From: Minisyncoccota bacterium
GTDB taxonomy: Bacteria > Patescibacteriota > Minisyncoccia > Moranbacterales > UBA1568
Reading direction: 5' to 3'
Length of the DNA stretch: 64,000 bases
Assembly (NCBI GenBank): GCA_051306005.1
Contig: JBPPMJ010000006.1
Coordinates: 91,296 to 155,295 of the forward strand
Shown: piece by piece, positions 14,508 through 59,429 of the stretch
Layout of the letters: each line of letters begins with the position of its first letter
Numbering within the stretch: the stretch's first letter is position 1
Translations under genes and position numbers: made by a program
Notes under the pieces: generated by a model
What the model was told of the DNA's origin: nothing
Seen by the model: the letters and a program-made list of their open reading frames with translations, nothing else
The model's database searches: none

Positions 14508-14861
14508 ATGTCGCGAAGTCTCAAAAAAGGTCCATACGTTGATCCACGAGTGCTCAAGAAGATTGAGGGGAAAAAGTTGGGCGATCGAACAGTTATCAAA
14601 ACCTGGTCACGGGCTTGCACTATTTCTCCAGAAATGGTAGGCTTTACATTCGGCGTACATAATGGAAAGGATTTTGTGTCTGTGTTTATTGCGGAAGAAA
14701 TGGTGGGACATCGATTGGGTGAATTTTCTCCGACACGTAAGTTTATTCGGCACGGAGGAAAGATGCAAAAAGAATTGGAAGTTGCTGCGAAACAACGGGA
14801 ATTAGATGCTGCTAAAGCCGCTAAAGCTACCACCATCACTTCGAGCACTAAGAAGAAATAG
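14508..14861 (+). CDS. rpsS: 30S ribosomal protein S19, with a ~25-aa Ala/Lys-rich C-terminal extension
   Basis: [12 protein letters not shown]...[17 protein letters not shown] core, then [31 protein letters not shown]. Confidence 0.93.
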
Positions 14862-43243: not shown

Positions 43244-44860
43244 TTATTTTTTTCGCTCTGGTAGAATGATAACATCAAAATCTCCACCAGCACGTTGTGA
43301 TCCATTCATATCGATATGTTCAACGAAAGTGTTTGGGTAGAGATCTTGGAATTTTTTTGCTAATGTTTCATTGTAATGGAGCATCAAAAGTACACCAGGT
43401 CCCTGAAATGTCGTATCGCCATTGATGATATGAAGATTGGCAACACGATGGTACGTGAGAAAATAGACCGGATGTGCAAAGACGGGCAAATGAAACCGGT
43501 TCGCATTGCCTTGCTCATCGATGAGAATATATTTTTGTGTTTCGTTAGGCAAAGTGAGGAGGTATCGTCCCATGTTGGTGTAGTTTTCATTGAATGCACT
43601 TCCTGCTGCTGGACTATGCGCAAAAAAGACAAAATATTTGGTGAAATTGAAAAGGGCACTGATTATGAGGATAAAGAGAAGCGTACAGAAGAGAGCTATC
43701 TTAGTATGTATTTTTGAACGTGTTGCCTGGGTGAATATCCAAAGCGCTGGAATGGTAGCAATCAAAAAGACAGGCATTTGTGTACCGATGGAACGAAGAG
43801 CATGTGGCAAGCCTTCATTGGTCAAAAACTCTGGAGCAAGCATGGTAAAAAATGAAACGATGAGAAAGGTATTGGTTACGAGACGAGCATCATGCCTTCC
43901 TTCTCTAAAACGTTTACCAAGCAGAGTGACTGTTTGCCAAATCAGAAAGAGAAAGCCTGCTAAGAAGAATGTACCAACAAAGGGATCAAGAATGGGGTAT
44001 GGAGGATAGTTGTGACGCCAATTTTGATCGCCGAAAAAATTGTATTTGATGAGCGATGTGGCGAAGGTTTTTGCGAGAGTTCCTCCTGCGTTACCGTGAT
44101 TGACTTCTGGTGAAAAGATAGAGATATGTGATGAACGTGAGGCAAAATCTTCAGGATGTGTGATAAAAAAATGAAACAGCATCGGCGATGCGGTAATGAA
44201 AGCACCAATAATAAAGCAACCTGCATGTTTCCAGAAACGTTGGAGAAAGTGTGGGTATGAGAGAAAGAGCGCGGGAAGGAGAAGAATAAGTATGAGTGGT
44301 GCAAGACGAAAAGCGACATAAGTATGTACCCCAATACCAAAAATAAGACCTGCAATAAAGAAATCTCGGAAACGTCTGGTCCGCAGACCTCGGAAAAAGA
44401 AATAAAACGAAAAAACGAGGAGAAAAGTGGTCATGATAGCACGAAAGCCAATGCGTGAGAAATTGATTGCCCAATAGGAAGTCGCTAGCATGAATCCCGC
44501 TAACAATCCCGCCATTTGGCGTTGAAAGAGTTCTCGTGCCAATAAAAAGATACCGAGGACCGAGCAGGTTCCAAAGAGTATGGACCATATTTTGAGACCT
44601 GTAATCGTGTTACCAAAGAGCGCTATGGAAATGGCCTGTAAATTGATAAAAAGACCTTCTCGTCCGAAATTGGCAGGATAAAAGATATCAAAATTTTTTG
44701 TTTCTAGAGCATGAAGTGCATCAACACCATTCGCAGCCTCGTCTGGATATATACCTGCTGGAATACTTTCAATGTGGTAGAAGCGAACGAAAAAAGCGAG
44801 ACAGAGAATAAGAAACAATACAATAATCACGATGAACCGAGTGGATTTTATGCTTGACAT
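43244..44860 (-). CDS. GT-C fold glycosyltransferase, PMT_2/ArnT-like
   Basis: YPDEA loop motif near the N-terminus and 11-13 predicted TM helices. In tandem with the PMT-family gene. Confidence 0.7.
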   Translation of the reverse strand: MSSIKSTRFIVIIVLFLILCLAFFVRFYHIESIPAGIYPDEAANGVDALHALETKNFDIFYPANFGREGLFINLQAISIALFGNTITGLKIWSILFGTCSVLGIFLLARELFQRQMAGLLAGFMLATSYWAINFSRIGFRAIMTTFLLVFSFYFFFRGLRTRRFRDFFIAGLIFGIGVHTYVAFRLAPLILILLLPALFLSYPHFLQRFWKHAGCFIIGAFITASPMLFHFFITHPEDFASRSSHISIFSPEVNHGNAGGTLAKTFATSLIKYNFFGDQNWRHNYPPYPILDPFVGTFFLAGFLFLIWQTVTLLGKRFREGRHDARLVTNTFLIVSFFTMLAPEFLTNEGLPHALRSIGTQMPVFLIATIPALWIFTQATRSKIHTKIALFCTLLFILIISALFNFTKYFVFFAHSPAAGSAFNENYTNMGRYLLTLPNETQKYILIDEQGNANRFHLPVFAHPVYFLTYHRVANLHIINGDTTFQGPGVLLMLHYNETLAKKFQDLYPNTFVEHIDMNGSQRAGGDFDVIILPERKK

Positions 44861-44876
44861 AGATATTTTTTATTTT

Positions 44877-44905
44877 TTCAATAGATTTTATTTCTATGGT
44901 ATAAT
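44877..44905 (+). promoter_or_regulatory. Promoter of the 44933-50617 operon: TTCAAT, N17, TGgTATAAT (extended -10)
   Basis: A consensus -10 with an upstream TG, a 17-nt spacer to a -35-like hexamer, and a 27-nt leader to the ATG at 44933. Confidence 0.45.
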
Positions 44906-44932: not shown

Positions 44933-47284
44933 ATGTCGCGTGATAAGGACTTTTCAAGGCAATCAAAGGAAGATCTGGATCCAGATATGGAAAGATATAG
45001 TGGTTCGGGCTTGTTGTTGCCACGAAGAAATAATCGTAGAAATAAAATAAAGAGAGTTGAGGGTGCGTCGGCAGTCATTTCAACGCAACCTCTTTTGTCA
45101 GCAGAGGTTCCGCCAGTTATTATTTTTACTGATGGAGGGCCTGCCCATAATGAAGCGGTTGTTTTGTTGTCTCATGATACTCTGGAAGAGAAACAAGAAA
45201 ACAATACTGTGCCTATTGCATCATCTCCTTTGTCCGTTATGACACCAGAAGAGACTCTAATTCCTTCAGTAGAGTCAGTGTCCACTTCTTCCGTCGTAAT
45301 ACAAAAACCTCTGATAGCTGATGAGGTAGAGGAACATATACAAAAGGAACATGTGGATGGTTCTCAGTCACTAGTCATGGAATTGTCCGAGCCCATCCCT
45401 GATGTATCGGTACCTGTATTGCAAGATACCGTTTCCCTTCGGATTATCGAAAAAGATAAACGAGAAAAAGCGGTAGCAGAAGCTCGTAAGAAATTTGTAG
45501 AAGAGGACTATAAAAATTCTACTTTGCATAAAAAATTGGGCGCATTTTTCCGTTTTAAAAAACAAGAAATGGAGGAGCATGTTGATGTGCAATATTGGAA
45601 AAATGAATATAAACGTACATTGCAGAGTTTGCAAGAGATGAAATTGGAGGATATTAAAGAGCAAAAAGGCACTGGCGAGGAAACGAAAGAGGCGTTGGCT
45701 GAAACTTTGCTATTTTTCAAACATGAAGCATTGCGCTTGTATCAAGAATACACTCAAGTACGCGAACAACATGCTGGCTGGATAGGCAAGGTTGCCAACA
45801 TGACGACAAAAATCGGAACGGGATACAATCAGCTTTCTTTTCAGCAGAAAATGTTGCTTTCAGGTGCTTTGTTGATTGGTGGTGTGGCAACTGGAGGTAT
45901 GTCAATAGTAGCCAAAAGAATGTTAGCGGGGACAGGAAGTTTTGTGGGCATAGAGGGCGCTTTGCAAAAATGGTTTGATGCTAGAGAAGTGAAACGAGTA
46001 GATAATGATATTCAGACACGGATGCAGGCGGAGCAACATTCGTTTGTGGATGGGGGAAACGCTACTCTCCAGTATGAAACACTACGTCATGTTACCCATA
46101 CCGCTATTGAAGAATTAGATACAAGACTACAGCAGAAAAAATGGGAAAATATGTTGCGAAAAACCATAGCAACAGGTATAGCGGTTGGGATTGGTTCGGG
46201 TATGTTCTCTCATATGGTGACGGGGTATCTACATGGTACTGAGACAGTGTCAGAATTGGGGCGTCCGGTAGGCAACGTACTGATGGGACAGACAGATACG
46301 ATGCTGGATATTGTTGATCATCAGGCATCACCATTGATGGTTACTTCAGATGGTATGCAAATTCCATGGGATGGGACTGACATTGACAGAACACTTTCAT
46401 CACAAGATGCCTTGAAGGTACAGACTCAAAAAATGTTGGACGTTTTGGAAAAGCATACTCCGCATGATGTATTGAGTGCTCATCAAATTCCATCAGCATC
46501 GAATCATTTGGAAGAGATTATGCCAAAAGTTTCGCTTTCTACTTTGTTGCAAGACTATGTATTGACGCGCGCGGATGGATCCCGTGGGCTGTGGGGCATC
46601 ATTGATGCTCAGTTGCCGACAGAATTGGCACGGGAAGAACGTCACGCAATCATCCAAAAAATAGAAAATGTGATTGCGGAACGTTTACAAGATATGTCTC
46701 CAGAGGAACGAAAATTGGCCGGTTTTCCGACCGGTAACATCAATCAAATATATGCTGATGATACGCTACGACTCGGTACATTGCTTACGGAAAACGATAT
46801 CCATGCTATTGTGAGAGAATCTGCTTCTTTTCCATCTGATTCTGTACTTTCTGTTGGAGCGGAAGCGGGTTTGACAGGAGGTGTCATAACTGATCCTCCG
46901 CTTATGGATTTGGATATTCGTCTTGATCGGGATATTCATCTGGGGAAAGCCTATGACATTCAGGCATACAAAGAGTATCTTGTGAAACATCCGGAAGATT
47001 TTCCGGTTTTCAAAAAAATGAGTGCCGAATATGTGGACTTTATCTTTCAAGGTAATATGCAAGAGATGGGTCGGATGGGTAGTTTGACGTTACATGAACT
47101 TACTCCGACAGATATACAACAAACAAAATTAGCAGAATTTTTCCGCTTATCACGTGAAGCTTTTGGTCCAAAGTTGGGTTTGCCGGGAAAACAAGAAAAA
47201 ATGTATGAATATATGATGCGTATGGCAATGCTTGGTATCGAACATCCAACAGGGAAACGTGTGTTTATCCCCAAGTGGATGTAA
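44933..47284 (+). CDS. Hypothetical 783-aa protein with two glycine-zipper hydrophobic segments
   Basis: Long ORF with no recognisable catalytic motifs. Segments LLSGALLIGGVATGGMSIVA and IATGIAVGIGSGMFSHMVTG (GxxxG repeats) lie mid-protein. It is the first gene of a tightly spaced four-gene operon. Confidence 0.6.
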   Translation: MSRDKDFSRQSKEDLDPDMERYSGSGLLLPRRNNRRNKIKRVEGASAVISTQPLLSAEVPPVIIFTDGGPAHNEAVVLLSHDTLEEKQENNTVPIASSPLSVMTPEETLIPSVESVSTSSVVIQKPLIADEVEEHIQKEHVDGSQSLVMELSEPIPDVSVPVLQDTVSLRIIEKDKREKAVAEARKKFVEEDYKNSTLHKKLGAFFRFKKQEMEEHVDVQYWKNEYKRTLQSLQEMKLEDIKEQKGTGEETKEALAETLLFFKHEALRLYQEYTQVREQHAGWIGKVANMTTKIGTGYNQLSFQQKMLLSGALLIGGVATGGMSIVAKRMLAGTGSFVGIEGALQKWFDAREVKRVDNDIQTRMQAEQHSFVDGGNATLQYETLRHVTHTAIEELDTRLQQKKWENMLRKTIATGIAVGIGSGMFSHMVTGYLHGTETVSELGRPVGNVLMGQTDTMLDIVDHQASPLMVTSDGMQIPWDGTDIDRTLSSQDALKVQTQKMLDVLEKHTPHDVLSAHQIPSASNHLEEIMPKVSLSTLLQDYVLTRADGSRGLWGIIDAQLPTELAREERHAIIQKIENVIAERLQDMSPEERKLAGFPTGNINQIYADDTLRLGTLLTENDIHAIVRESASFPSDSVLSVGAEAGLTGGVITDPPLMDLDIRLDRDIHLGKAYDIQAYKEYLVKHPEDFPVFKKMSAEYVDFIFQGNMQEMGRMGSLTLHELTPTDIQQTKLAEFFRLSREAFGPKLGLPGKQEKMYEYMMRMAMLGIEHPTGKRVFIPKWM

Positions 47285-57174: not shown

Positions 57175-57774
57175 TTAGCGATAGGCGCTGACACGCGCGG
57201 AATATTTCTTCAGGTTTTGCAATTGCCGATCATTTAGGGTCTTGGATTTTTCAATACCTTGCTTGATAAGGTCTTTGGAAAATTCCAAAGATGTGTTCGT
57301 TGTTATCTTTTCTTGAAAATCTATATTTTTTCGTAAGTAATCTTCAATATAGACTTTGTGTTCGGCGGTGAGTGAGGAATCGGCATTCTTTTCGAGATAG
57401 TGAGCGAGTGCACGGCGTGCCAAATGAGTGGAGCCATTTCCGCGCTCAGCTTTTTCAATAAATGATACTTCTGTTTCTTGACTCAATTCTTCGGTGATGA
57501 CGATAGCATTCTTGACTTCGGTTTGAGGTGTGATGGATGACTTCATATCTGAAGAGGTTTCTTCGGGAGTGGAGTCACTGTTTTCACCTTTGACTTCGAG
57601 TAAGGTGCTGGTGTCTTCATCAACATCTCTTTGTGTTCGTTGAGAATATGAGTAGATACCAAAAGCGATTGCAGCAACAATGAAAACGCTGACGATAATA
57701 CGAAGATTTTCTTGAATCCAGACTTTCGTCTGATTAGTGGAAGCATCTTCGAACATAGGATCTTGTTGTTCCAT
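57175..57774 (-). CDS. Hypothetical membrane-anchored protein (199 aa)
   Basis: The start is placed at the ATG at 57774, preceded by a GAGAGGTG SD. TM helix IIVSVFIVAAIAFGIYSY. The track ORF extends to 57927. Confidence 0.5.
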   Translation of the reverse strand: MEQQDPMFEDASTNQTKVWIQENLRIIVSVFIVAAIAFGIYSYSQRTQRDVDEDTSTLLEVKGENSDSTPEETSSDMKSSITPQTEVKNAIVITEELSQETEVSFIEKAERGNGSTHLARRALAHYLEKNADSSLTAEHKVYIEDYLRKNIDFQEKITTNTSLEFSKDLIKQGIEKSKTLNDRQLQNLKKYSARVSAYR

Positions 57775-58129
57775 GATATTCACCTCTCTTTCTAGTGTAT
57801 GATTATGATTGTGAAAGTACTGCTTACGTTGAAGCCTTTCTGGCTCACCGAGGCTATCTTTTGTATCATTGACAAGCCATATCGACCCCTCTCCTTTTAT
57901 ACTACGTCTTTGAAAAAAGACTGTCAACTAGGCAAAAGAACCATTTTTTGTTCTAATATCATTTCTTTTTTTCTGCTATTTTGATGTTTCCATTATACTC
58001 CGCATTCACTTTTTTTCGATGGAAGATAATTTTTTTTTCATGCTATAATTTTTTTTATCATTATTTTTTGAGATGCGAATGAATAATGTTGTTTCTGAAT
58101 AAAAATATTATTTTCTCTTTCACGTACTC

Positions 58130-58176
58130 TTGACAGATATTTTTTCTCTATGCATTTTATAAAAATCGTGTATAAT
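58130..58176 (+). promoter_or_regulatory. Promoter region of the lysine-rich protein gene, with a consensus TTGACA (58130-58135) and a consensus TATAAT (58171-58176)
   Basis: Both consensus hexamers sit in a 540-nt AT-rich non-coding region. They are 35 nt apart, so probably belong to separate promoters or a complex arrangement. Confidence 0.3.
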
Positions 58177-58314
58177 AAATGATGTACGGAATGTATTTCG
58201 TATCACGCACAAAAATATTTGTCGTGTAAAAATAAAAAAATCTGCTCGATTGATGTGTTTGCATAAACTGATGCAACAGAAAAATCGAATGCAAGAAAGA
58301 AGGAGGTGAGTATT

Positions 58315-58467
58315 ATGGCAACCAAGAAAAAAGTTACCAAAAAACCAGTAGCTTCAAAAAAGAAGGTTACTAAAAAACCGATCAAAAAGATCGTGAAAAA
58401 AGTGGTAAAAAAGTTACCAAAAAAACCGATCAAAAAGATCGTGAAAAAAGTTACCAAAAAGCGTTAA
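58315..58467 (+). CDS. Small lysine-rich basic protein (50 aa, KKP/KKV repeats), histone H1-like/Hc1-like candidate nucleoid protein
   Basis: Perfect SD AGGAGGTG 7 nt upstream of the ATG. Translation MATKKKVTKKPVASKKKVTKKPIKKIVKKVVKKLPKKPIKKIVKKVTKKR. A 14-bp-stem terminator follows. Confidence 0.6.
   Translation: MATKKKVTKKPVASKKKVTKKPIKKIVKKVVKKLPKKPIKKIVKKVTKKR
58378..58451 (+). repeat. Perfect 26-nt direct repeat (CCGATCAAAAAGATCGTGAAAAAAGT) x2 with a 48-nt period inside the lysine-rich gene
   Basis: Copies at 58378-58403 and 58426-58451. Both encode PIKKIVKKV. Confidence 0.85.
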
Positions 58468-58490
58468 TACGCTTTCGTACAGCTTTTATA

Positions 58491-58530
58491 AAAACAAAAC
58501 ATCCCGTTAATAAGGGATGTTTTGTTTTTA
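58491..58530. terminator. Bidirectional rho-independent terminator
   Basis: 14-bp perfect stem AAACAAAACATCCC/GGGATGTTTTGTTT with an 8-nt loop and flanking T-run. Lies between the lysine-rich gene and convergent prmC. Confidence 0.7.
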
Positions 58531-58544
58531 TAAGTTAAGTTCTT

Positions 58545-59429
58545 TCAAAATTTATTGTGTATATGCATTTTGAGAATACGCATCATTCCAGCAAGATCTG
58601 GGTGAATAGTATAGGTCGCATCAGGAAAGTGTCGATGGATATAGGTAGTGAGCAAAGGGCATTGCTCTGGGCTTATTTCGAGCAATACGCATATGGATTG
58701 CCGTAAAGGACGTAGCTGTTGTAGAAGACGAAAGTAATGATCAAGACCGATCGGACCACTGACCAATGCGGTCGATGGTTCAAAGTTTTTTACATCATCT
58801 GCAGTTGATTGATATATTTTTTCAGAAAGATACGGAAGATTGGCAACTACAATAATGTCGTGTTTCGGTATCAGAAAGGGGAAGAGAGGTGTGAGGAGGT
58901 TGCCATGATGGAAAGTAATGGTGTGTTCTACATGGTGGCGTCGCGCATTTTCTTGTGCTTGAGTGATGGCATCAAGAGAAATATCAAGCGCGTGAAAAGA
59001 CAGTCCTTGAAAATTTGGTACCGTAGCGAGAGATATGATGATATTACCACTACCCGTACCGACATCCGCTATCAAAATGGTTGATTGTGTACCACGTGAC
59101 ATTTGTAGAGTCGAGATTTCTTGAAGAGCAAGATCGACCAAACATTCCGTTTCTGGTCGTGGAATAAGCGTATGACGATTAACTAAGAAAGTGCGCCCAT
59201 AAAATTCTTTGTGTCCAATAATCATGGCGACGGGTTCATGGGCCAATCGTCTTGTGAATAAATTTCGGCAGGCGGATTCGACTATCGTGTCCAGAGAATA
59301 CTCCGGATGCGCCAAAAGAAAAGTCTTTTCTTGATTGGTAACGTGTGCCAAGAGAATAAAAAAGTCTTCTGGTGCAATGTGCTGATCATTCGATGTCAAA
59401 AATTCTTTTTGTAATTCAGCGATAGTCAT
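58545..59429 (-). CDS. prmC: Release factor glutamine N5-methyltransferase PrmC (HemK)
   Basis: SAM motif DVGTGSGNI and NLPY (NPPY-type) motif. Immediately downstream of prfA. Confidence 0.88.
   Translation of the reverse strand: MTIAELQKEFLTSNDQHIAPEDFFILLAHVTNQEKTFLLAHPEYSLDTIVESACRNLFTRRLAHEPVAMIIGHKEFYGRTFLVNRHTLIPRPETECLVDLALQEISTLQMSRGTQSTILIADVGTGSGNIIISLATVPNFQGLSFHALDISLDAITQAQENARRHHVEHTITFHHGNLLTPLFPFLIPKHDIIVVANLPYLSEKIYQSTADDVKNFEPSTALVSGPIGLDHYFRLLQQLRPLRQSICVLLEISPEQCPLLTTYIHRHFPDATYTIHPDLAGMMRILKMHIHNKF

Follow-up and report, generated by a model that had tools for sequence, protein, structure and literature searches.

Background

Several classes of small or tail-like polycation serve to handle nucleic acid or are built into the machinery around it. 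The tails of linker histone H1 lack order in the free state, become helical on DNA and work through charge neutralisation. Protamines are extremely basic, foldless peptides of about 30 amino acids whose sequence and length evolve fast while their charge is kept; they are arginine-based, eukaryotic and sperm-specific. The proteins bS22, bL37, bTHX and eL41 are 24 to 35 amino acids long, highly basic and easily missed by annotation.

Lysine-rich repeats also occur in bacterial proteins. In PMC2848022, Hc2 is described as a DNA-binding protein made of lysine-rich pentamers, the number of which varies between strains. PMC3643593 and PMC9239181 attribute AKKA/KKxx-type repeats and the binding of DNA or polyanions to mycobacterial HupB/MDP1, Pseudomonas AlgP and Streptomyces DdbA, and the latter source associates the lysine-rich, H1-like AlgP with polyphosphate granules. 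The Parcubacterial ribosomal protein uS19 carries an Ala/Lys-rich C-terminal extension (PMC9297842).

CPR/Patescibacteria are among the smallest known cells, and both DNA compaction and the neutralisation of nucleic-acid charge are largely unstudied in them. Here we present an analysis of a small lysine-rich ORF in a stretch of 64,000 nucleotides of Minisyncoccota DNA (the window). We show that this ORF is a genuine, conserved, monocistronic gene of a CPR/Moranbacteria-like lineage. Its product contains no globular domain and probably lacks order when free and turns helical when bound.

Results

A lysine-rich gene at a conserved site

The coding sequence occupies positions 58315-58467 of the forward strand (ATG to TAA, stop counted) and encodes exactly MATKKKVTKKPVASKKKVTKKPIKKIVKKVVKKLPKKPIKKIVKKVTKKR, the protein of 50 amino acids and 48 % lysine that had been predicted originally. 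It contains 24 lysines and one arginine, with neither acidic (Asp or Glu) nor aromatic residues. The N-terminus reads MATKKK and is preceded by no domain, and the 50-residue sequence shows neither a signal peptide nor a transmembrane segment. The building units are KKxx and KKKxx, where x is A, V or T across relatives and also I and P in the window genome. An earlier start at the GTG at 58306 (MSIMATKKK) was ruled out because this GTG belongs to the Shine-Dalgarno (SD) sequence itself and the ATG is the start kept in relatives.

Homologues were found through synteny only. In related genomes, whose PrmC is 46-55 % identical to that of the window, the syntenic site lies between prmC and a conserved gene for a membrane protein of about 196 amino acids. 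A Lys-rich ORF of 23-53 amino acids is present there in all 18 further distinct related loci that have enough sequence to contain the site. These ORFs start with MA(A/V/T)..KKK and end with KKR(K/A), and the promoter elements, SD, leader and terminator are all kept around them. In the window itself prmC (58545-59429, reverse strand) is convergent with the small gene, and the constant neighbour on the other side is a divergently transcribed gene for a single-pass membrane protein of 199 amino acids (57178-57774, reverse strand), which has more than 1300 homologues, no Pfam family and no fold match. The genomic neighbourhood is translation-related (rpsB-tsf and rpmE-prfA-prmC). One related NCBI assembly, L002, has no gene called at the site.

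Homology searches

Among 5.8 billion proteins, word-indexed HMMER found no match to the 50-residue protein at E <= 0.01. Exhaustive phmmer against 1.84 billion representatives returned five matches, all 426-733 amino acids long and judged spurious; the three that we inspected are unrelated repeat proteins with EKIVDRPV- or KKVSKQP-type repeats. Pfam searches with the window protein (E up to 1) and seven relatives (E up to 10) yielded no significant match, HC2 (PF07382) being absent, and an NCBIfam search of the window protein returned no families. Hc1/HctA (PF07432) was likewise absent from the Pfam and NCBIfam results and linker histone (PF00538) from the Pfam scan, in which the match to core histone (PF00125) was sub-threshold at 12 bits; no HU/IHF domain (PF00216) was found N-terminal to the repeats. 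None of the ribosomal-protein models (bS22, bL37, bTHX, bL34-36) matched in Pfam or NCBIfam, and sequence searches of the PDB gave chance matches only (E > 0.1) and no ribosome chain. HMM searches fail to detect the family because the correction for composition strips its signal. The protein had been likened to H1 tails, chlamydial Hc1/Hc2 and the tails of mycobacterial HupB; homology to these is undetectable, and the likeness is one of composition and architecture.

Exact look-ups of the 50- and 53-residue versions and of nine relatives found them absent from the protein collections. Homologues of 39-53 amino acids that had been called on related contigs are likewise absent, so this result is uninformative about annotation status. 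A PrmC scan of the genome collection brought up a single distant Planctomycetota locus only.

Selection on charge and in-frame repeat variation

Codon counts over the whole family give 348 Lys and 28 Arg and not one Glu, Asp, Asn or Gln, which shows that selection acts on charge. Of the 18 single-nucleotide changes open to Lys codons, eight lead to Asn, Gln or Glu, yet the family uses none of these residues, and 21 of the 28 Arg codons are CGN, at least two substitutions away from AAR. Ala, Val and Thr are encoded by all four of their codons. The coding sequences differ widely in GC (0.30-0.52) and in A content (0.39-0.57) with a steady amino-acid composition, and Lys plus Arg make up roughly 50-65 % of each acid-free product. 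Their lengths vary from 72 to 162 nt, in frame throughout, with both ends anchored by conserved sequence. Some members repeat with a period of 4 and others with one of 5 or 6, so that charge density alone is conserved and not a fixed fold or binding pocket. Runs of A do not exceed 7 nt in any of 18 genes, which is not significantly shorter than in synonymous reshuffles of the Lys codons.

Within the window ORF, an exact direct repeat of 32 nt encodes KKPIKKIVKKV at 58372-58403 and recurs 48 nt downstream at 58420-58451 (forward strand). The 48-nt period agrees with the original prediction, which had put the length of the perfect repeat at 26 nt. When the codons of the ORF were shuffled 2000 times, the longest repeat had a mean length of 11.9 nt and never exceeded 26 nt, so that none reached 32 nt. 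AlphaFold2 (AF2) predicts a coil followed by two helices at residues 20-33 and 36-49 (pLDDT 80), one helix per repeat copy.

The suggestion that copy number may vary between strains is borne out. Over 434 nt, the two related loci L020 and L021 differ by one 48-nt in-frame indel and are otherwise 100 % identical, and repeat number thus varies between near-identical strains, while the relatives as a whole span 23-53 amino acids; the L020/L021 polymorphism could in principle stem from the collapse of a short-read assembly. Slippage of the 48-nt (or 12-24-nt) repeats would shift the number of units easily, with charge alone held constant.

An unusual promoter

A consensus -10 element, TATAAT, lies at 58171-58176 of the forward strand and is found in 11 of 12 aligned relatives, the twelfth having TATACT. 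The element TTGACA at 58130-58135, followed by a T-tract, is invariant in all 12 and stands 35 nt upstream of the -10 in the window and 35-38 nt across the relatives; L027 and L030 share the arrangement. The two consensus hexamers predicted originally therefore both exist, but they do not stand at promoter spacing: the canonical sigma-70 combination of TTGACA and TATAAT 16-18 nt apart does not occur here. This 35-nt separation is why a sigma-70 scan reported no forward-strand promoter at the locus. The sole hexamer at 16-18 nt from the -10 is a weak one read from the alignments, TATGCA at 58149-58154 (TWTGCA in relatives), 16 nt upstream in the window, which may act as the -35. For TTGACA itself, an UP-element-like function, binding of an activator or use as an alternative -35 are all possible. 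As a promoter the arrangement is unusual, and the start of transcription that we use is putative. The region 57775-58314, first taken as a 540-nt AT-rich leader, is indeed AT-rich (GC 0.25-0.28); only about 138 nt of it lie downstream of the -10.

A structured leader RNA

Three hairpins on the forward strand make up the leader. Hairpin 1 (58184-58203; 8 bp with a UGUA loop), at or near the 5′ end of the transcript that we infer, is supported by single-sequence folding, RNAalifold and pair counts; its helices 1-2 are paired in 95-97 % of cells, with compensatory change in two pairs. Hairpin 2 (58204-58226; CACG-C-ACAA ... UUGU-CGUG), found by the same three approaches, corresponds to helix 3, with 96 % of cells paired and again compensatory change in two pairs. 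In hairpin 3 (58259-58276; UUGCAU-AAACUG-AUGCAA), found by RNAalifold and pair counts and corresponding to helix 4, six of seven pairs show compensatory change. Overall, the leader has 23 pairs, 93 % of cells paired and ten pairs with compensatory change; none of 500 shuffles was as good, and slid controls reached 30-64 %.

A covariance model of the leader (R1) gives one match per locus, each time 5′ of the K-rich ORF; loci that it had not seen scored 28-150 bits, and no other sequence matched. Scanning the window with Rfam at gathering scores detected tRNAs only, leaving the leader unmatched, and an E-value scan of 57900-58560 gave weak matches, nearly all of them to the terminator hairpin; the hairpins of the leader drew none. 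Some single-sequence folds have the SD sequestered by a pyrimidine tract of the leader; others, including that of the window, do not.

Translation signals and terminator

The SD AAGGAGGTGA at 58300-58309 (forward strand) ends 5 nt before the ATG, occurs once in the 64-kb window and is the strongest SD there. It includes the consensus SD noted originally, AGGAGGTG, at 58301-58308, and its core GGAGGTGA keeps both its sequence and its distance to the ATG in 12 aligned relatives.

Downstream of the ORF, a perfect 20-nt inverted repeat (58486-58505 and 58514-58533) with an 8-nt loop forms an intrinsic terminator at 58486-58533, which the gene has in common with the convergent prmC. A terminator had been predicted here with a stem of 14 bp; the stem has 20 bp. 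It folds at -29.3 kcal/mol (z = -7.8 against shuffles), and a T-run lies within and after the 3′ arm, as in Rho-independent terminators. Because an A-tract precedes the stem and a T-tract trails it, the terminator is bidirectional. All 17 aligned relatives have a terminator in this position, and its stem shows compensatory changes. A simple terminator scan missed the stem because its G+C core is short. We also considered a Lys-sensing attenuator with the ORF as leader peptide and rejected it: the terminator is followed by convergent prmC, and no relative has a co-oriented downstream gene.

The transcription unit comprises a consensus -10 with a conserved upstream element, a three-hairpin leader of about 140 nt, a maximal SD and, at its end, a strong terminator. 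An mRNA organised in this way is likely to be stable and heavily translated, and the leader may exert translational control. The impression of a strongly expressed gene in the original prediction is consistent with an independently transcribed and conserved gene that has very strong translation signals, and the product is presumably abundant.

Discussion

Role of the protein

Judging from composition, we give about even chances to the reading that we favour, in which the product is an abundant, disordered-to-helical polycation that neutralises and condenses nucleic acid, with DNA a more likely partner than rRNA. Made in stoichiometric amounts, such a polycation would act chiefly on the chromosomal DNA of a very small cell, neutralising and condensing it much as protamines, chlamydial Hc2 and the C-terminal tails of linker histones do. 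High expression, binding to nucleic acid and DNA rather than RNA as the main partner are inferred.

Sequence conservation is higher in the leader and terminator than in the ORF, and every relative has an open antisense frame, so the locus might instead specify a non-coding A-rich RNA, or its product might be the listed hydrophobic antisense ORF of 84 amino acids (58203-58457, reverse strand), which the original prediction had named as the case that would overturn it. The antisense frame is open because Lys codons, taken from the opposite strand, specify Phe or Leu; neither a start, a stop nor an SD is conserved for it, and it lies across the SD and leader that are conserved, is reduced in some loci to a frame with no start codon or a 10-codon ORF, and would place several Arg inside its hydrophobic stretch. 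The sense frame has an invariant SD and ATG, conserved MAAKKK and KKRK-stop ends and in-frame indels throughout; Lys gives way to Arg and never to Glu, Asn or Gln, and amino-acid composition holds while nucleotide composition drifts. Taken together, these observations make a non-protein or antisense product scarcely credible. An exported cationic amphipathic peptide of the antimicrobial or cell-penetrating kind, used by an epibiont against the membrane of a host or competitor, is brought to mind by the two predicted helices of the window protein, IKKIVKKVVKKL and IKKIVKKVTKKR, which are strongly amphipathic (hydrophobic moment 0.88). The moment falls to 0.38-0.5 in most relatives, which are Ala/Thr-rich, and the shortest of them, the 23-mer MAKKKAAKRKKATKKKKGGKKRK, is not amphipathic at all, so that amphipathicity is not a conserved feature of the family; in addition, there is no signal peptide, nor any transporter, immunity or maturation gene adjacent in the conserved neighbourhood. 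We regard export as very improbable.

Among intracellular partners, charge alone does not discriminate between polyanions, and the case of AlgP (PMC9239181) offers a precedent for binding to polyphosphate granules; envelope polymers would be another such target. The conserved neighbourhood contains no gene of polyphosphate metabolism, and the sole tie of the peptide to the envelope is the unexplained pairing with the membrane-protein gene, which leaves a partner other than nucleic acid improbable. The ribosome is a live alternative, given the translation-related neighbourhood and the A/K-rich tail of the window's own uS19, similar to that of Parcubacterial uS19 (PMC9297842). The protein would then be a lineage-specific small ribosomal or accessory protein like bS22, bL37, bTHX or eL41, or a free-standing equivalent of such a tail, that neutralises rRNA in the reduced ribosome of CPR and uses the leader hairpins as an autoregulatory site. 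The conserved position near rpmE-prfA-prmC and rpsB-tsf, the structured covarying 5′ leader, a common feature of ribosomal-protein genes, and the very strong expression signals all fit. Against it, length (23-53 amino acids) and period vary freely among close relatives, unlike in integral ribosomal proteins; Pfam, NCBIfam and the ribosome chains of the PDB are unmatched; and the gene is convergent with prmC and not co-transcribed with it. In one relative (L026), moreover, a local inversion leaves the small gene paired with the membrane-protein gene and not with the translation genes. On balance we consider a ribosomal or RNA-associated role unlikely.

Significance

The condensing polycation can be extended to a bolder proposal, which we think unlikely as a whole: the chromosome of Moranbacteria-type CPR would be packaged largely by a free-standing, protamine-sized polylysine peptide, its dose autoregulated by binding to its own three-hairpin leader and its length tuned rapidly by repeat slippage, with expression from an atypical promoter whose invariant TTGACA stands about 55 nt upstream of the start. 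If the peptide does package the chromosome, no smaller dedicated chromatin protein would be known from bacteria. In any case, a universally retained and apparently very highly expressed polycation of 23-53 amino acids is a synthesisable candidate for a compaction role in one large CPR lineage. Tiny polycations may be missed systematically, this family being invisible to HMMs, empty in exact look-ups and uncalled in L002. Both the conserved leader and the unusual spacing of the promoter elements also give testable entry points into gene regulation in uncultivated bacteria.

Comparison with known systems

Like Hc2 (HctB), as described in PMC2848022, the window protein consists almost wholly of short Lys/Ala/Val/Thr repeats in strain-variable number. 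Both contain no acidic patches and have separately regulated expression. Hc2 differs in size (165-237 versus 23-53 amino acids) and belongs to an unrelated lineage (Chlamydiae versus CPR), and DNA compaction has been demonstrated for it, whereas it is a prediction for the present family. HupB, AlgP and DdbA carry their repeats as an addition to a folded domain (an HU fold, a DksA-like domain and so on), whereas the present protein consists of the repeat alone. The family resembles bS22, bL37, bTHX and eL41 in being very small and highly basic; those proteins are fixed in length and sequence within a lineage, unlike the present family with its 23-53 amino acids and periods of 4, 5 or 6. With the C-terminal domain of H1 the window protein shares a K/A/P/T-rich composition and S/TPKK-like motifs (TKKP and PKKP), but it stands alone, has no winged-helix globular domain and is ten times shorter. 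Although Lys-based (348 Lys versus 28 Arg), the family comes close to the protamines in size, basicity and absence of a fold, and in a charge that is conserved despite changes in sequence and length.

Results

A lysine-rich gene with an internal duplication

The plus-strand ORF running from the ATG at 58315 to the TAA at 58467 encodes 50 aa, among them 24 Lys, one Arg and no acidic residue, and its exact translation is the peptide quoted in the original prediction. The consensus SD claimed for it is also present: AAGGAGGTGA at 58300-58309 (+) lies 5 nt 5′ of the ATG and occurs only once across the 64-kb window. The predicted duplication does have a 48-nt period, but the exact direct repeat within the ORF is 32 nt long (58372-58403 and 58420-58451, +) and not 26. 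When the ORF was codon-shuffled (n = 2000), the longest repeat averaged 11.9 nt with a maximum of 26, and 0/2000 shuffles reached 32.

The gene is conserved in position

The window comes from a CPR/Patescibacteria genome: its PrmC and the 199-aa protein upstream match, without any difference, proteins of an NCBI MAG that carries the label Minisyncoccota bacterium, and the closest relatives of its PrmC, 46-55 % identical, are from Moranbacteria/Moraniibacteriota MAGs and metagenomes. Direct searches with the peptide gave nothing meaningful, whether as a HMMER query against 5.8 billion proteins, by exhaustive phmmer against 1.84 billion representatives (the three matches inspected were unrelated repeat proteins) or against Pfam, NCBIfam and PDB sequences, as expected for so short and compositionally extreme a query. 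Related loci were therefore collected through the genes flanking the small gene and not through the peptide itself.

Gene order is conserved as rpsB-tsf / rpmE-prfA-prmC / gap / ~196-aa membrane protein / DUF192 / MraY-like / RmuC. A small Lys-rich ORF, convergent to prmC and divergent from the membrane-protein gene, occupies the gap in 18/18 further distinct loci containing it. A local inversion in one related locus (L026, 7534-9552) places the small gene beside the DUF192 gene and leaves intact both the divergent pair and the leader and terminator of the small gene. Family members of 23, 24, 31, 33, 35, 37, 39, 40, 41, 48, 50 and 53 aa all start with MA(A/V/T)..KKK and end in KKR(K/A) or KKAKK. 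Essentially five residues are used (K, A, V, T, R), the window member being an outlier with additional P, I, L and S. Basic residues recur with a period of 4 (KKxx) in the longer members, the window's among them, whereas shorter members have a period of 5 (KKKxx) or 6.

Two of the related loci, L020 and L021, derive from different metagenomes and match at all of 434 aligned nt (100 %), promoter, leader and terminator included. Only one in-frame unit of 48 nt (16 codons) within the ORF sets them apart, the same period as the duplication in the window. This bears out the expectation that repeat number varies between strains, with the caveat that tandem repeats can be collapsed when short reads are assembled.

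Gene callers annotated homologues of 39-53 aa in five related loci (L004 4967-5086, L023 7033-7155, L024 6959-7081, L025 6989-7141 and L027 2183-2344); in the NCBI assembly L002 the site carries no gene call. An exact-sequence look-up of the L004, L019, L020 and L021 homologues in a large protein collection found 0/4, the L023-L027 sequences not being among the queries. Proteins of this kind may be systematically lost.

Evidence for coding

Comparison of the relatives indicates that the small ORF is a coding gene. Neither the SD core GGAGGTGA nor the ATGGC start varies, and the distance between the two is fixed; the ORF is anchored at its 5′ end by the conserved ATGGCAGC and at its 3′ end by AAR AAR CGN AAR TAG with a conserved 3′ UTR behind it. 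Between these ends, lengths differ by multiples of three throughout. Slippage in steps of 12 or 15 nt would produce part of this automatically, yet differences of 3 and 6 nt occur too. The family contains 348 Lys and 28 Arg codons, and 21 of the latter are CGN, at least two substitutions from AAR. Glu, Asp, Asn and Gln codons are absent, yet Asn, Gln and Glu make up 8/18 single-nucleotide neighbours of Lys codons. All four codons of Ala, Val, Thr and the C-terminal Arg are in use across the family. Amino-acid composition stays constant while CDS GC spans 0.30-0.52 and A content 0.39-0.57. Selection thus acts on the charge of the protein and not on A-rich RNA.

The original prediction had left room for the antisense ORF as the expressed product. 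In relatives this frame has no conserved start or end, no SD and at times no start codon, and it crosses the conserved SD and leader. It is open as a by-product, since the reverse complement of a Lys codon encodes Phe or Leu.

Promoter, leader RNA and terminator

Both consensus promoter hexamers were correctly foreseen, TTGACA at 58130-58135 (+) and the -10 element TATAAT at 58171-58176 (+), but the 35 nt between them is off canonical spacing, and a sigma-70 scan thus reports no plus-strand promoter at the small gene. Across 12 distinct upstream regions that were aligned, TTGACA is invariant and leads into a T-tract, GAGTATAAT is nearly invariant, and a weak TWTGCA lies 16-18 nt upstream of the -10 element. 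With a spacing to TATAAT of 35-38 nt throughout, TTGACA is conserved yet is no canonical -35; we infer an UP-element-like or factor-binding upstream element. A second site, TTGACA-N40-TATAAT at 44854-44905 (+), lies 5′ of an ORF at 44933-47284 and has TTGACA..GATATTTTTT in common with this element. The 64 kb contain two long-spaced sites against 0.12 expected, and 0 occurrences of TTGACA-N15-19-TAWAAT; the two sites may reflect an upstream promoter element specific to the lineage. Further TATAAT hexamers occur between 57990 and 58050 in the AT-rich intergenic region, at 58044 (+) and at 57997 (-), the latter a candidate -10 element of the divergent membrane-protein gene.

Downstream of the -10 element, RNAalifold predicts a leader RNA of ~140 nt with three hairpins (58176-58317, +). 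Its 23 pairs are formed in 93 % of cells and 10 carry compensatory changes; 0/500 shuffles were as good, and slid controls were 30-64 % paired. A covariance model of the leader (R1), seeded with 12 sequences, finds one match per locus (matches in L002-L030), always immediately 5′ of the Lys-rich ORF, including the non-seed loci L023, L027, L026, L024 and L025 (150, 130, 96, 76 and 28 bits). Searching the window and about 200 kb of related DNA gave no other match, and the leader matches no Rfam family. In single-sequence folds the SD is unpaired in the window and in L019, and paired in L004 and several other relatives. A CCTCC-containing pyrimidine tract, lacking in the window leader, precedes hairpin 3 in the leaders of L004 (5084-5230) and L019 (2418-2569). 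Because the SD is able to pair with this tract in some relatives, translational control through the leader is possible.

A terminator does follow the gene, with a perfect 20-nt inverted repeat and an 8-nt loop (58486-58505 / 58514-58533; -29.3 kcal/mol, z = -7.8) instead of the predicted 14-bp stem. Flanked by an A-tract and, on the opposite side, by a T-tract, it can serve in both directions, for the small gene and for the convergent prmC (58545-59429, -). Relatives keep it at a fixed distance 3′ of the stop, with compensatory stem changes.

Discussion

Across the family only charge density and the two termini are conserved; neither a common helical geometry nor a binding pocket is. A single-sequence AF2 model of the window peptide (mean pLDDT 80, pTM 0.29) has a 19-residue coil and helices at 20-33 and 36-49, one per repeat copy; the hydrophobic moment of these helices is 0.88 (strongly amphipathic), against 0.38-0.5 in most relatives.

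The function of the protein is a matter of inference. A product that is acid-free, about half lysine, devoid of an export signal, equipped with maximal expression signals, variable in length and conserved in charge is best accounted for as a bulk polycation that serves a polyanion of the cell, and is probably abundant. DNA or nucleoid condensation is the role we favour, at about an even chance for the whole chain of reasoning. The main rival, a partner of rRNA or the ribosome, seems rather unlikely. It would fit the translation-gene neighbourhood, the structured leader and the Ala/Lys-rich C-terminal extension of Parcubacterial uS19 (PMC9297842), visible in the window's uS19 (14508-14861, +); the free variation in length and period speaks against an integral ribosomal protein. 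Less likely still are export as an antimicrobial-like peptide, binding of polyphosphate and a non-coding reading of the locus. The small gene is conserved, overlooked and easily tested.

A likeness to histone H1 and Hc1 had been proposed. Profile tests for Hc1, Hc2, H1, HU and ribosomal-protein families place the window protein in none of them; the resemblance lies in the probable mode of action. Our literature search, incomplete in coverage, turned up no earlier account of a protein of this kind from CPR bacteria; the leader RNA is previously undescribed and the promoter spacing unusual. Among the closest known likenesses are the C-terminal tails of eukaryotic H1 and the protamines, whose size the family shares on a Lys basis. 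Chlamydial Hc2, which binds DNA and is built of lysine-rich pentamers in numbers that differ from strain to strain (PMC2848022), is, like the window family, a lysine-rich repeat protein of variable repeat number. HupB, AlgP and DdbA offer a likeness in their Lys-rich tails, whereas the window protein stands alone. We place it in the bacterial class of H1-like repeat polycations, as a stand-alone, Lys-based protein of protamine size.
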